From a virus, in the UHGV virus genome UHGV-0337628: a stretch of DNA of 18,112 nt; one strand, written 5' to 3'. Positions within the stretch are counted from its first letter, which is position 1. Each line of letters opens with the position of its first letter. Both the position numbers and the translations under genes were made by a program. Under the pieces are notes generated by a model that searched no databases, was not told the origin of the DNA, and saw only the letters and a program-made list of their open reading frames with translations. This document shows, in pieces, positions 1,883-17,272 of this stretch.

Positions 1883-2338
1883 CTATCTCCCGTGATTCAG
1901 GAAGTCGATTAGTTCTTCGCGTGTGGCGCTGTAAAACGTCACGTCATCCACGCCTTTGAAGTATTTCTTGATGGTTCCTACACGATTAAGGCCAATCATT
2001 GCGCAGTACATCTGCCCGTGGCGGAATTTGCGTGCAGCGAACGATGTGACACACTGAACAGTGGTGTTAGTCAGAATGTATCGCCAGAACGCCAGCCCGA
2101 TTTCCTTGCTGAATCCACGAACCTCTGGCAGGTACATGGCGTGGCAATCAAAGGTCAAAGGCTGAATCTCCTGATAGTAAACAATGCCGCCGAACTGCCC
2201 GTGCACGTTCACCTCGAAGTAACGGCATTCAGGCTTGTAGTCGTATCCATCACCGTTATTGCTTCCGGCGATAATGTCAGGGTGATTTCCGACTGCTTCG
2301 ATCAGGTCGATGTTTCGCGTTGGTTTGAACTGAATCAT
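1883..2338 (-). CDS. virion assembly/ejection-associated protein, P22 gp14-like (Sf6 gp10 position)
   Basis: 151-aa ORF immediately downstream of the tail-needle gene; assignment is by conserved gene order only, I do not recognise the sequence itself. Confidence 0.5.
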   Translation of the reverse strand: MIQFKPTRNIDLIEAVGNHPDIIAGSNNGDGYDYKPECRYFEVNVHGQFGGIVYYQEIQPLTFDCHAMYLPEVRGFSKEIGLAFWRYILTNTTVQCVTSFAARKFRHGQMYCAMIGLNRVGTIKKYFKGVDDVTFYSATREELIDFLNHGR

Positions 2339-3249
2339 TACTGCTCCGCGATTATCTTGATGGTTGTGGCAGTAAACGCCGCACCATTCGACTGAATGGT
2401 TAACGTACTGCCATTTGTGGCAAGAAAGCCGTCTTTATCCACACTGAAGAACGTAGCTAACAGGATGTTGTCGGTTGTTGTCGCCGCATTACGACTGCTG
2501 ACCAGCGTATCAGGAACAGAACCGGAGAATGTTAGCTGCATTGACCTGTTGGCGGTTCCGCTGGGCCACGTCCCGACAATCGACAGCTTGAAGAACAAGG
2601 TTTTGTTCTCGTTGAACACAACCATCTTGTTGTTAACGGTGTCGAAGAATGGTGCCAACGTTCCGGATGACGGCGTGAGCGTTTTCAGCAGGCTAACAAG
2701 GTTGGTCGGCGCTGTCGGGATGGTTACAGATACTCCTGAGTAAACAACCTCTGATTTCTTGCGCGTGGTGGCATACTCAAGCGCAGATATTCTTGTTGAG
2801 TGATCACCAACTGTGCTTTGTAGCGTCGAAATACTTCCCTCTGCCGCTGTGAGCCTGGTATCAAGTGCGTCGATATCGGTTGTATTCTGAGTTATTCGCG
2901 TCTCGTGATCAGCCAGCTCTGTTTCGGCAGCCGTAATCCTTGTTTCATGATCTGCAAGAGTGCTTTCCGCTGCTGCGATTCTATGTTCATGATTGATGAG
3001 AGTTGCTTCAGCAGCTTCAATTCTGGATTCATGGTCTGCAAGGGTGACATCCTGCTCATCATTCTTCACCTGTGCATCATAAGCCCCCTTCCCTGCTTCG
3101 TTGGCCTTGTTCGCCACGTTACCAACATCAGTACCCTGTGCGATAACGTACAGCAGATATGACTGCGAGAAGATATTGCGTGGAAGAACTGATGTATCGA
3201 GCCGCGTAGCTTGGATGATTACCGGCTCATTGAGATTCGAATCCGCCAT
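2338..3249 (-). CDS. tail needle protein (P22 gp26-like) with C-terminal knob domain
   Basis: N-terminus [43 protein letters not shown] closely matches my recollection of P22 gp26 ([43 protein letters not shown]...); central DHExRI coiled-coil repeats; ~150-aa C-terminal extension as in Sf6-type needles; start overlaps the stop of the upstream gene. Confidence 0.85.
2875..3042 (-). repeat. four imperfect in-frame ~42-bp tandem repeats encoding the coiled-coil of the tail needle
   Basis: Translated units [14 protein letters not shown] / [14 protein letters not shown] / [14 protein letters not shown] / [14 protein letters not shown] (14 aa each); the repetition is visible in the DNA between ~2880 and 3060. 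Boundaries approximate. Confidence 0.5.
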
Positions 3250-4667
3250 TACTCAATCCTTATCTGGCAGCCAGACAGAGTGACAGGTGACTTCGTGATA
3301 ACGCGCAATTTGAAGCCAACATTTTTCCTGATGCGCCCTACTCGCTTCCACAAAACGCGTTTGTCGTAAACGAACGGTTCATTCTGCTCAATCATCTGCT
3401 CACGTCCGTAATTGATTCCGTCAGTGGTTGCAGAGAGGAACAGGCGGTCGGCGTACTGCGCAACGCCAGTTGACGATTCAACCTCAAGGTCGAACACTCT
3501 GGCGTTATCCGCTTTGAACAACGGAGTAAACAGCAGGTGTTCCTGCTGCTTGTCGTACTGGCTGCTGATATCGAACTGCAATTTCCCGGTCACGGATTCC
3601 AGCTTATCGCCGCACGTTATCTGATTGCCTTCGTAAATGAAGTCGATAGCGCGGTACACATCGTCATACAAGCCAGTTTTCAACACACACCATTGCGGAC
3701 CATTGGCGCTTGAAGATGCGTCGTACACGAGAACATGGCGCGCAAGATGGATAATCAGCAACTCATGCGCATCAAATCGCAGAGACTCCATCACACCATC
3801 AGCCAGTTCATCAGCAGTGTAGGCGCGTAGTATTTTCTCAATACTCGCGCTGGCGATTGGTGATACCTGACCGGAGCCGATGATGTATACAGACGGCGCA
3901 CCCGTTGCCGGATTGCTGATGAACGCATACGAATCAGCAAACGGCGTTTTGCAGTAAGTCCCGGCGATACCTTTTTGCACCATCAGTGATGGCTGTGCGA
4001 CATACAAAGCTGCACCAACGGTGGTTGCACCAGTCAGGGAGAAATATTCAATCGTCGATGAACCAAAGCAGACGATGAAGTCTCGCCATGTTCCGATGCC
4101 GATGATGCCGTCAGGCTGCGACTCGGCACGATATTGTGCGCTGTAGCGGTCAGGGTGCGATTCGTCTTCAGGGTCAGTGATAAACCATGAATCAGTACCG
4201 TCTTTTGACCACGCATAACGCCCACGTAAGCGCGTAATGTCGCGGACTGAGCCTAACTCATACTGCGTGAATCCGCTGTCTGTAGGCCAGTTTGAGACTG
4301 TTTTAACCGTGCCATCATAGCGATACTCGACCAGTTGACCATTAACGCCTACCGCCTGAGATGTCCGACCATGCGCCATTGATACGCGACCACTTCCGGC
4401 AACATCACCGACCTCGCTTTCGCCCTTATACAACTTGCCACCGCAAACGCGATAAACAGCATTCTGCGCCATGTTGTACTCGACACCGCGCGATACACCA
4501 TTCACATCAGAACGTTTGGCAATGCCCGGGAATGAGCGAAGATATCCGCTGCTGTTGAGTATTTCTTTGGGTGTAGCCAGCATATTCACTGGCAGATAGT
4601 CGATGTAGTCGGCGTTTCGGAAATCTTTGCCGACACCTTTCATAAGCGGAAGTTGCTGAATCGGCAT
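3249..4667 (-). CDS. head-to-tail adaptor / portal plug protein, P22 gp10-like
   Basis: 472-aa ORF (P22 gp10 is 472 aa) placed between the gp4-like and tail-needle genes. Confidence 0.75.
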
Positions 4668-12849: not shown

Positions 12850-13137
12850 CTACTTCTTCAGAAATGATTCGATGAACTCACGCCGGGGATGACGATAGTT
12901 CAGAATATCTTCTGGCATCCTCATAAAGCGGTTGTTGCCGTCTTTGGCAGTAACGAAACAGCTGTGAACTCCGCAGACATCCGTTTTGATCGTGTCGCCA
13001 TACTCAAAAAGCAACTGCGCCATCTTCTCTTGCCATTCTTGCGGCATAGCCTCCATGAATACTCTCGGCATCACGCAGAACGACGCATGCGTCAGGCCAA
13101 ACCACAATTGCAGGTCTTTACGATATTCTTCATCCAT
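12850..13137 (-). CDS. hypothetical protein, 95 aa
   Basis: Internal ATG at 13137 preceded by AAAGG 8 nt upstream and by a terminator hairpin; product MDEEYRKDLQLWFGLTHASFCVMPRVFMEAMPQEW... The track's 13257 start is a TTG and would read through the hairpin. Family not recognised. Confidence 0.5.
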   Translation of the reverse strand: MDEEYRKDLQLWFGLTHASFCVMPRVFMEAMPQEWQEKMAQLLFEYGDTIKTDVCGVHSCFVTAKDGNNRFMRMPEDILNYRHPRREFIESFLKK

Positions 13138-13152
13138 CGTCTTTACCTTTGT

Positions 13153-13181
13153 TGCAATAAAAAGCCCCGCGAATGCGAGGC
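13153..13181 (-). terminator. intrinsic terminator-like hairpin downstream of Rz, immediately upstream of the 95-aa ORF
   Basis: Minus strand GCCUCGC-AUUC-GCGGGGC (7-bp G/C-rich stem, one G-U pair, 4-nt loop) followed by UUUUUAUUG. Confidence 0.55.
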
Positions 13182-13356
13182 TAAATCCTGGTATTTGTAA
13201 TGATCTGGCTCTTATCTCAACGCAACCCCTTACTGCGCGCCAGATGCTCAATATCAAGCATCAGCAATGAGATGTTTAATCTGGATTCACTCCAGAAGCG
13301 ATCACCACCCTGTCTACAGAGCCAGATGTGAAGGATGATGAGTAAAATTATCGCTA

Positions 13357-13824
13357 TCATCGAAGGCATTGCGTCCTGATGTATTCCTGAAGCGTTCTCA
13401 GTGCTGTTTGGTCGCGGATAATTCTGTCCCGGATACCGAGAACGTTTCGTCCAGCAACTGGAGAGAGTTCGACGGTGGCATCATTGCCCATGCCGGAGGC
13501 GCTGGAGGTTTCGTCTGAGGATGGCACAGGGCATTTTCCTTTGACGAGCACCCTGCCACCATTATCAAGCTTCCGCCGAAGAGCATCATTTTCAGCTTTC
13601 GCATCAGCTAACTCCTTCGTGTATTTAGCATCAAGTGCATCAGCATCACGCTGGCGCTGCTGCATGTCAGTAATGGTGGCGGTCGCCTGCTTCAGCTCAC
13701 TGACTTTTTTATCGCGCTGTTCTTTGTAGGTAATGGCGTTATCACGGTAATGATTAACAGCCCATGATAGGCAGACGATGATGCAGATAACCAGAGCGGA
13801 GATAATCGCGGTTACTCTGCTCAT
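13357..13824 (-). CDS. Rz: spanin inner-membrane subunit (i-spanin) Rz
   Basis: 155 aa; N-terminal transmembrane segment and first ~85 residues match my recollection of lambda Rz ([34 protein letters not shown]...[13 protein letters not shown]), then the C-terminal half diverges; start overlaps the R stop. Confidence 0.85.
13398..13604 (-). CDS. Rz1: spanin outer-membrane lipoprotein subunit (o-spanin) Rz1, embedded in the +1 frame of Rz
   Basis: ATG at 13604 with AAGGAG Shine-Dalgarno; product [23 protein letters not shown]... has a signal peptide and lipobox (VAGC) and a Pro-rich stretch, like lambda Rz1; entirely inside Rz. Confidence 0.7.
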
Positions 13825-14297
13825 ACCTCAATCTCTCTGACCGTTCCGCCAGCTTCTTTGAATTTTGCAATCAGGCTGTCAGCCTTATGCTCGAACTGAC
13901 CATAACCAGCGCCCGGCAGTGAAGCCCAGATATTGCTGCAACGGTCGATTGCCTGACGGATATCACCGCGATCAATCATCGGTAAAGCGCCGCGCTCTTT
14001 AATCTGCTGCAGTGCAACAGCGTCCTGGCTTTTGGGAGAGAAGTCTTTCAGGCCAAGCTGCTTACGATAGGCATCCCACCAACGGGAAAGAAGCTGGTAA
14101 CGTCCGGCTGCTGTTGATTTGAGTTTTGGGTTTAGCGTGACAAGTTTGCGAGGGTGATCGGAGTAATCAGTGAATAGCTCTCCGCCTACAATGACGTCAT
14201 AACCATGATTTCTGGTTTTCTGACGTTCGTTATCAGTTCCCTCTGACCACGCCAGCATATCGAGGAACGCCTTACGTTGATTATTGATTTCCACCAT
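13821..14297 (-). CDS. R: endolysin, lambda R-type lytic transglycosylase
   Basis: 158 aa; [23 protein letters not shown]...[23 protein letters not shown]... is essentially lambda R as I remember it; start overlaps the holin gene. Confidence 0.9.
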
Positions 14298-16263: not shown

Positions 16264-16550
16264 GGCTTAATCTTCCCCTCCTTCAGCAGGATCGCCTGCG
16301 TCCTGATCACGCCTTCCAGGTGGTAAAGTCTGGCGTCTTTGTTGTCGAGGTTATGGGTGCGTCGGTCGATTTCATCGTGACACGCGCTACAAGCCCATGC
16401 GCCGATCAGGTCGTCAGGCTTCATTCCCGTTCCGCAAATTCCAGCCATCCGGTAATGTGCCAGAACTGTAGTTTCAGGATTGCCATTGCATACGCCGTAA
16501 ATACGTACCTGACATTCTCTGCCGCGCGCTTCTTTGCGTAGGTTAGCCAT
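16260..16550 (-). CDS. YbcO-like (DUF1364) Cys-rich protein
   Basis: 96 aa with several Cys pairs (CQVRIYGVCNG, CSACHDE); position directly upstream of rusA as ybcO is in the E. coli DLP12 prophage; family assignment from memory. Confidence 0.5.
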   Translation of the reverse strand: MANLRKEARGRECQVRIYGVCNGNPETTVLAHYRMAGICGTGMKPDDLIGAWACSACHDEIDRRTHNLDNKDARLYHLEGVIRTQAILLKEGKIKP

Positions 16551-17272
16551 TAAGCAGCCTCCCCTGTTACTTTCAGCATTCCGTTATCGAGCAGCTTTCT
16601 GGTCAGCCACTGTTGACCACGCCCGGTGATTTTTGTGGTGAACGATATCTGTATTCCGTGATTTGTGTTGACCGCTGTTTCTTTCACTGTGAAATAGCCG
16701 CGATCCATATATTCCTGCATTGGCACATTTCGCCGGGAACCTGAAGCAATAAGGATTTTGTGATCGCGCATCCATGCAAACAGTTTGTTTGGACCAATAC
16801 CGACAACCTTTGCAAAGTTTCCAATCAAAATTCCGCTGGCCTCGCCAACGCGATCGGCAAACTCAACTTTAGGTGCGGCAATTGCGAGCTGGTTTTCCAG
16901 TTGCATTTTCTGCTCAGCAAGATCAGCAGCAAGGCGCAACGCTTCTGGTAGCGTTTTGGGGATATTAACCGCAGCTTCTTCAAGCTCTCGCCAACGGTCA
17001 ACAAGACGAGCGGTGAATTCCGGCGACAACTGAGCGACGACAATAATGCTGTCTCGCTTACCTTGTTCGCCCTCAAAAACGTAAGCCTCTACGCCACGAA
17101 GTAATCCTAAGTTATTGATTTTTTCGAAAACCACCATTGGGGGATTTCGGATCACACCTCGAGCCGCCATTCGTTCAATAGATTGTTTCACCTTGTCATG
17201 ACGACTTCCCACCAACTCAGAGATTTCAATGCTTGTCATTTTGATGGCATTGCCATTTATTAACTCATTCAT
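16550..17272 (-). CDS. phage antirepressor / regulatory protein (Rha-like N-terminal region, KilA-C/ANT-type C-terminal domain)
   Basis: 240 aa; N-terminus ...MTSIEISELVGSRHDKVKQSIERM... is Rha-like; C-terminal half resembles antirepressor KilA-C domains; GGAAGAAG upstream of the ATG at 17272. Confidence 0.6.
   Translation of the reverse strand: MNELINGNAIKMTSIEISELVGSRHDKVKQSIERMAARGVIRNPPMVVFEKINNLGLLRGVEAYVFEGEQGKRDSIIVVAQLSPEFTARLVDRWRELEEAAVNIPKTLPEALRLAADLAEQKMQLENQLAIAAPKVEFADRVGEASGILIGNFAKVVGIGPNKLFAWMRDHKILIASGSRRNVPMQEYMDRGYFTVKETAVNTNHGIQISFTTKITGRGQQWLTRKLLDNGMLKVTGEAA

Follow-up and report, generated by a model that had tools for sequence, protein, structure and literature searches.

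A Sf6/HS1-type tail needle with a shaft two heptads shorter than the commonest form in a P22-like prophage

The length of tail needles in relation to their stability was reportedly treated by Bhardwaj in J Mol Biol in 2009, and the Sf6 knob is said to be the subject of Bhardwaj in J Biol Chem in 2011. The needles of P22-like phages are about 220-320 Å long, contain 11-16 heptad repeats and end in one of two unrelated types of tip (Leavitt et al. 2013, PMC3741392); the HS1 needle (317 aa) has 16 heptads, and those of Sf6 and P22 have 11. P22 furnished with the Sf6 or the HS1 knob plates and infects Salmonella normally, and virions with a foldon-tipped needle are functional; the authors concluded that the knob confers no species specificity in the laboratory (PMC3741392). 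K+ is released (DNA delivery) at a different rate during infection when the tip, and possibly the shaft, is changed, though in only some of their constructs (PMC3741392). The full Sf6 needle has also been modelled in the virion, where its N-termini accommodate the mismatch between 3-fold and 6-fold symmetry at the hub (PMC9728967).

We analysed a stretch of 18,112 nucleotides from the viral genome UHGV-0337628 (hereafter the window), in which one gene encodes, with a probability of about 0.96, the trimeric tail needle of a P22-like (CUS-3/Sf6/HS1-like) E. coli prophage (Table 1). The first-pass annotation had placed a 303-aa needle at 2338-3249 without naming a strand; an open reading frame of exactly that length lies there on the minus strand, and the plus-strand reading of the same interval was rejected, its frame being full of stops. 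Residues 122-303 match PF16532 (Phage_tail_NK, 'Sf6-type phage tail needle knob') with an E value of 2e-107 and a score of 356.9 bits against a cut-off of 27, all 175 profile positions being covered, and the protein matches PHROG 1030 ('tail needle knob') with an E value of 1.4e-134. No evidence contradicting the identification as a tail needle was found among these and the following comparisons. The gene is the orthologue of Sf6 gene 9, P22 gene 26 and HS1 EcHS_A0316, and a homotrimeric state is probable by analogy with near-identical solved trimers and from the literature.

Table 1. Positions of the tail needle gene, its parts and its two neighbours in the window
Feature	Residues	Coordinates	Strand	Evidence
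Tail needle gene		2338..3249	minus	ORF of 303 codons plus TAA stop; PF16532, PHROG 1030 and PDB matches
Tail hub, P22 gp10 homologue (upstream neighbour)		3249..4667	minus	PHROG 578, E 1.5e-227; stop overlaps needle start (TAATG)
P22 gp14 homologue, DUF2824 (downstream neighbour)		1883..2338	minus	PHROG 651; start overlaps needle stop (TAATG)
N-terminal hub-binding/plug region	1-64	3058..3249	minus	match to 8EAP_B; nearly invariant in relatives
Coiled-coil shaft	65-159	2773..3057	minus	heptad phase count, AF2 helix, homology to P22 gp26 coiled coils
Four imperfect 42-nt/14-residue units	70-125	2875..3042	minus	repeat search, autocorrelation
Repeat unit 1	70-83	3001-3042	minus	
Repeat unit 2	84-97	2959-3000	minus	
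Repeat unit 3	98-111	2917-2958	minus	
Repeat unit 4	112-125	2875-2916	minus	
Indel junction zone, CGCGAAT	codons T117-R118-I119	2894..2900	minus	DNA alignment and breakpoint scan against three 317-aa genes
C-terminal knob, TNF-like jellyroll	160-303	2341..2772	minus	identity to 4K6B/3RWN, residue check, fold search

The genes of the window stand in the order large and small terminase, portal, scaffold, coat, gp4-like adaptor, gp10-like hub, needle, gp14-like, gp7-like and gp20-like, so that the needle gene is flanked, within a P22-like morphogenesis operon, by the gp10-type hub gene on one side and the gp14/gp7/gp20 ejection-protein genes on the other; the lysis genes, the Q antiterminator and RusA are upstream of the structural genes. 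These are all full length, intact and translationally coupled, starting with the terminase and continuing as far as the gp20 homologue, within which the window ends. The order from portal to gp20 is that of Sf6 and P22, and Sf6 genes 8, 9 and 10 overlap at their boundaries just as the needle gene of the window overlaps its two neighbours. The nearest phages are CUS-3 and vB_EcoP-720R6, with 95-96% identity over 74-77% of the window. Given this gene order and these nearest phages, the window is part of a P22-like (Lederbergvirus; CUS-3/Sf6/HS1-like) prophage, whose host is most probably E. coli.

Three further minus-strand genes of the window and several features of related loci were recorded. 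An ORF of 135 aa at 12850-13257 has no Pfam match and covers only positions 125-230 of the 233 in phrog_3527 (function unknown); because the match is partial, it may be a truncated gene or one with a mis-set start. Between holin and Rz, in the position expected of an endolysin, is an ORF of 158 aa (13821-14297) with no Pfam match at E 0.001 and a match to PHROG 90 'endolysin' at E 1.3e-63. A gene of 240 aa resembling Rha/KilAC (ANT) antirepressors (16550-17272) lies in the late-regulation region, upstream of the YbcO, RusA and Q genes. In public loci with an identical needle, PF11039 was found for the gp14 homologue. Prophages with different portal, scaffold and coat (417, 423 or 431 aa) genes carry the identical 303-aa needle along with the adjoining gp10, gp14 and gp7 genes; the tailspikes in such loci are 665 and 805 aa long, and in one locus an HNH endonuclease gene separates scaffold from coat.

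The two ends of the needle have different closest relatives of known structure. Residues 3-64 match the P22 gp10-gp26 chain 8EAP_B, solved in situ by cryo-EM, with an E value of 1.4e-27, and residues 1-147 match the P22 gp26 structures 2POH, 3C9I and 4ZXQ with E values of about 1e-44. All alignments to gp26 chains end near residue 147, and the P22-type tip (gp26 141-233) was not found in the needle; the C-terminal domain is therefore not the P22 tip. In the PDB search the C-terminal 150 residues match only knob structures. Between residues 151 and 303 the needle is identical at 151 of 153 positions to the crystal structure of the HS1 knob (4K6B) and at 150 of 153 to the Sf6 gp9 knob (3RWN); within the crystallised segment the window has A255 and T152, and HS1 has Ser at both positions. 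The residues that contact L-glutamate, mapped from HS1 numbering (PMC3741392), are present as E167, K221, S269, D271, L276 and K298, and so is the tip triad S252-R253-N254. The AlphaFold2 monomer model (mean pLDDT 81.7) consists of a single helix over residues 29-161 followed by a beta domain, with pLDDT values of 94-98 over residues 61-150 and of 55-68 in some blocks of the knob; this moderate confidence in the knob is unimportant because crystal structures at 99% identity exist. A Foldseek search with the model returned 4K6B and 3RWN first, then gp26, and then PRD1 P5 and TNF/C1q folds. The two earlier suggestions that the C-terminus is knob-like and that it differs from P22 gp26 are thus both borne out.

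The first-pass annotation also ascribed the extra length over P22 gp26, given correctly as 233 aa (PDB 2POH), to a C-terminal domain of about 150 aa. A distinct knob is indeed present, but it is not a simple addition: the tip is replaced and the shaft is longer. Among the 70 extra residues, the replacement of the 93-aa non-knob tip of gp26 (141-233) by the TNF-like knob of about 144 aa (160-303) accounts for a net gain of about 51, and the remainder is due to a shaft some 19-21 residues longer, with 14 heptads in the window needle against 11 in P22 gp26 (PMC3741392). The N-terminal plug and the shaft of gp26 (2POH, 3C9I, 8EAP) are homologous to those of the window needle and share about 60% identity with them in residues 1-145, the DHExRI heptads among them; by analogy within the family the window protein would have the same role as a channel plug.

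Comparison with the other described needles places the window protein close to that of HS1. The needle of E. coli HS (EcHS_A0316, 317 aa, 4K6B) has the same gene position and, as judged from 317-aa forms of the same type, the same N-terminal plug and shaft unit types; it differs in that the window needle is without the RIAANESELANHDA unit, which amounts to 16 against 14 heptads by the published count. The Sf6 gene 9 needle (282 aa; 3RWN) has the same architecture and gene order and is 91% identical over the aligned residues of the whole protein, but its shaft is 21 residues (three heptads) shorter than that of the window and consists partly of other unit types, e.g., IAQNESD ISSLDTR VQSLESQ; relative to the 317-aa form, Sf6 gene 9 is without 28 + 7 residues. 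The HK620 needle structure 5BU5 (233 aa, with a P22-type tip) matches only window residues 1-162. Two overlapping stretches of the engineered 320-Å fibre of P22 gp26 (4LIN, 300 aa) match the window shaft. In 4LIN the added heptad-repeat units give a folded, longer trimeric fibre, but the duplication is artificial and the tip is of the P22 type, unlike that of the window.

A continuous heptad-repeat shaft links the N-terminal and knob domains, and within it the four imperfect 42-bp/14-residue repeats that had been noted at the outset are real. All four units share the motif L-x-[DN]-H-E-x-R-I, and units 1-3 also have AAE; the second heptad of unit 4 differs (TQNTTD), and a fifth unit, at residues 126-139, is more degenerate. 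Set out in rows of 14 from residue 70, the shaft fills six rows and closes with ISALEY. Pairwise identity between units is 40-71% in DNA and 36-71% in protein. Tandem Repeats Finder, run on the needle gene at a score of 30 (the lowest), reported no array; the units are too diverged and were therefore missed, so that periodicity was tested by autocorrelation against shuffles. A repeat search of the gene found three copies at a spacing of 42 nt. Along the shaft, the nucleotide autocorrelation reaches 0.48 at offset 42 and 0.49 at offset 84, and offsets other than multiples of 21 give about 0.21-0.32; the value observed at offset 42 was not attained in any of 2000 codon shuffles, the highest figure in any of them, whatever the offset, being 0.42. 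For the protein, the autocorrelation is 0.44 at offset 14, a value again reached by 0/2000 shuffles. The repeats are also in register with the heptads, as a check of the 'a' positions (70+7k) made clear: L, I or V stands at 13/13 of them from residue 70 to residue 154, and the register is unbroken, without a stutter. At the 'd' positions (73+7k), His and Ala alternate from 73 through 115, followed by N, L, A, L, H and L.

As an observation apart, His at residues 73, 87, 101, 115 and 150 occupies every second core 'd' position, alternating with Ala, and the core His sits in the DHExRI motif that P22 gp26 carries too. A regular ladder of His in the core of a coiled coil could make the shaft sensitive to pH or ions.

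The needle gene has a match in 885 complete E. coli genomes. Its closest counterparts, from such genomes and from phages JEP4, Gally and vB_EcoP-720R6, are 954 bp long and encode 317 aa. The closest of these 317-aa genes have 97-99% DNA identity to the window gene and, across aligned residues, 99% protein identity, and the difference in length is exactly one 42-bp unit, encoding IAANESE LANHDAR. Compared with vB_EcoP-720R6, the breakpoint can be placed anywhere in the 7 nt CGCGAAT common to both flanks; compared with the other two 317-aa genes, its ambiguity is 2 nt. The deletion is in frame, and the heptad register is kept. On these alignments, the window allele is best described as the common 317-aa needle of the HS1 type less a single 42-bp unit. 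The unit that is absent is clearly diverged from its neighbours and is therefore not the product of a recent duplication. On grounds of parsimony rather than of a rooted tree, the 303-aa form would more probably have arisen by deletion from the 317-aa form than the 317-aa form by duplication.

To place this allele among its relatives, 5.8 billion clustered proteins were searched, which gave 2528 homologues at E below 1e-20. The lengths of the best 120 of these form a ladder in steps of 7 residues (254, 268, 282, 289, 296, 303, 310, 317, 324, 331, 338 and 345 aa), and the variation in repeat number expected by the first-pass annotation is thus seen directly among related prophages. By extension of the published count, the ladder corresponds to roughly 7 to 20 heptads, a broader range than the 11-16 cited (PMC3741392). 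The part from the ALEY motif to the C-terminus is 148 aa long in nearly every full-length sequence of the ladder in which the motif can be located. Judging from the unit strings of the homologues, blocks of 7, 14 and 28 residues have been deleted or duplicated at differing sites in the shaft. There are two different 303-aa forms, each without different units, that of the window being the one without IAANESE LANHDAR. Duplications of 28 residues are found in the 331-, 338- and 345-aa forms; the 331-aa form is the window type with its first two units duplicated, and the 338-aa form is of the Sf6 type with a 28-residue block in triplicate. The 303-aa needles comprise 31 distinct cluster representatives, and close relatives of this length (99-100% identical) are annotated as 'tail needle knob protein [Escherichia coli]'. 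Independent assemblies from NCBI, ENA and Logan include 17 public contigs that encode a protein identical to the window needle, and the prophages concerned differ in their coat, scaffold and tailspike genes; the needle is therefore a real circulating allele. In a few homologues (285, 298, 309 and 316 aa) the indels are not multiples of 7, which would put the shaft out of heptad register; sequencing errors, pseudogenes or tolerated stutters could account for them.

By analogy with P22 gp26 and Sf6 gp9, the N-terminal 60 residues or so would enter the hexameric tail hub, formed by the gp10 homologue, and plug the channel through which the DNA leaves, and the three-stranded coiled coil would form a shaft projecting beyond the tailspikes, with the C-terminal TNF-like jellyroll knob holding three L-glutamates at the subunit interfaces. 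Release of the needle on infection would then open the channel, and the ejection proteins (gp7, gp20 and gp16 homologues) could leave through it along with the DNA. Whole heptads may be added or removed by unequal recombination or replication slippage between the diverged 42-bp units, and the coiled-coil register would be kept because the heptads are gained or lost whole. The needle module is exchanged mosaically among prophages.

The closest matches in complete genomes all have 954 bp, and assemblers can in principle collapse tandem repeats; the length of 303 aa might accordingly be an artefact in which short reads collapsed one 42-bp repeat of a gene that in truth encodes 317 aa. This is scarcely credible, and we reject it because the independent assemblies with a 303-aa needle are many (17 contigs with the identical protein in differing prophages, and 31 distinct cluster representatives) and because the units, with their DNA identities of 40-71%, are too diverged to collapse. 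It is also conceivable that the prophage is defective, the gene an inert leftover within it and the loss of the repeat a matter of neutral decay. The ends of the prophage and the tailspike lie outside the window, and the ORF at 12850-13257 matches only the C-terminal half of its PHROG, both of which would fit such decay, but the intact, full-length and translationally coupled structural genes from terminase to gp20 argue against it, as do the in-frame deletion and the preserved heptad register. Moreover, the same allele persists in several mosaic prophages, which points to transfer within viable phages. We therefore regard decay as very improbable and retain the reading of the gene as the needle of a P22-like prophage, carrying a real 303-aa allele.

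A different question is whether the knob is a receptor-binding domain that determines host range, with knob swaps and changes in shaft length retargeting the phage to another envelope. Its fold is TNF-like, as are those of the PRD1 P5 receptor-binding knob and of TNF-family ligands, and the literature likens the needle knob to the adenovirus fibre knob; the needle is described as reaching past the tailspikes, so that it should touch the outer membrane first (PMC3741392). The effect of tip and shaft sequence on the kinetics of K+ release (PMC3741392) may also be cited in its favour. However, knob-swapped P22 infects Salmonella normally and a foldon-tipped needle is functional (PMC3741392), and the identical 303-aa needle adjoins tailspikes of 665 and 805 aa. 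It follows from the latter that the needle allele is not coupled to the primary receptor-binding protein, and the same two tailspikes speak against a strict coupling of needle allele to tailspike type, which had been entertained as a candidate. A role of the knob in host range is thus unlikely. The first-pass annotation had named changes in repeat number and knob swapping as plausible routes to an altered interaction with the host envelope; repeat number does vary, but knob swapping leaves host specificity in the laboratory unchanged, with only the rate of K+ release altered (PMC3741392). As for the ladder of lengths itself, it may reflect neutral repeat instability, or it may be a selected 'ruler' that matches the reach of the needle to the thickness of the host O-antigen or capsule, or that adjusts what triggers DNA ejection and how fast it proceeds. 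Recurrent independent indels (the two different 303-aa forms and the 28-residue duplications) would support selection, which we nevertheless consider doubtful.

The window needle, a member of the P22-like family as set out above, is an ordinary Sf6/HS1-type needle of a kind already known; the one thing that sets it apart is that its shaft is shorter by two heptads than that of the commonest, 317-aa form. The family, the knob structure, the glutamate ligands, the variable number of heptads and the effects of tip swaps have all been published, and the exact sequence of this needle is already in public databases under the name tail needle knob protein. The importance of the finding is therefore slight beyond correct annotation, and the survey of needle lengths is a mildly useful by-product. 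The natural series of lengths, with its 7-residue steps and recurrent independent indels, could be used to ask whether needle length affects the kinetics of DNA delivery. If the ladder is indeed a selected ruler, the 42-bp repeats would be a built-in contingency locus.
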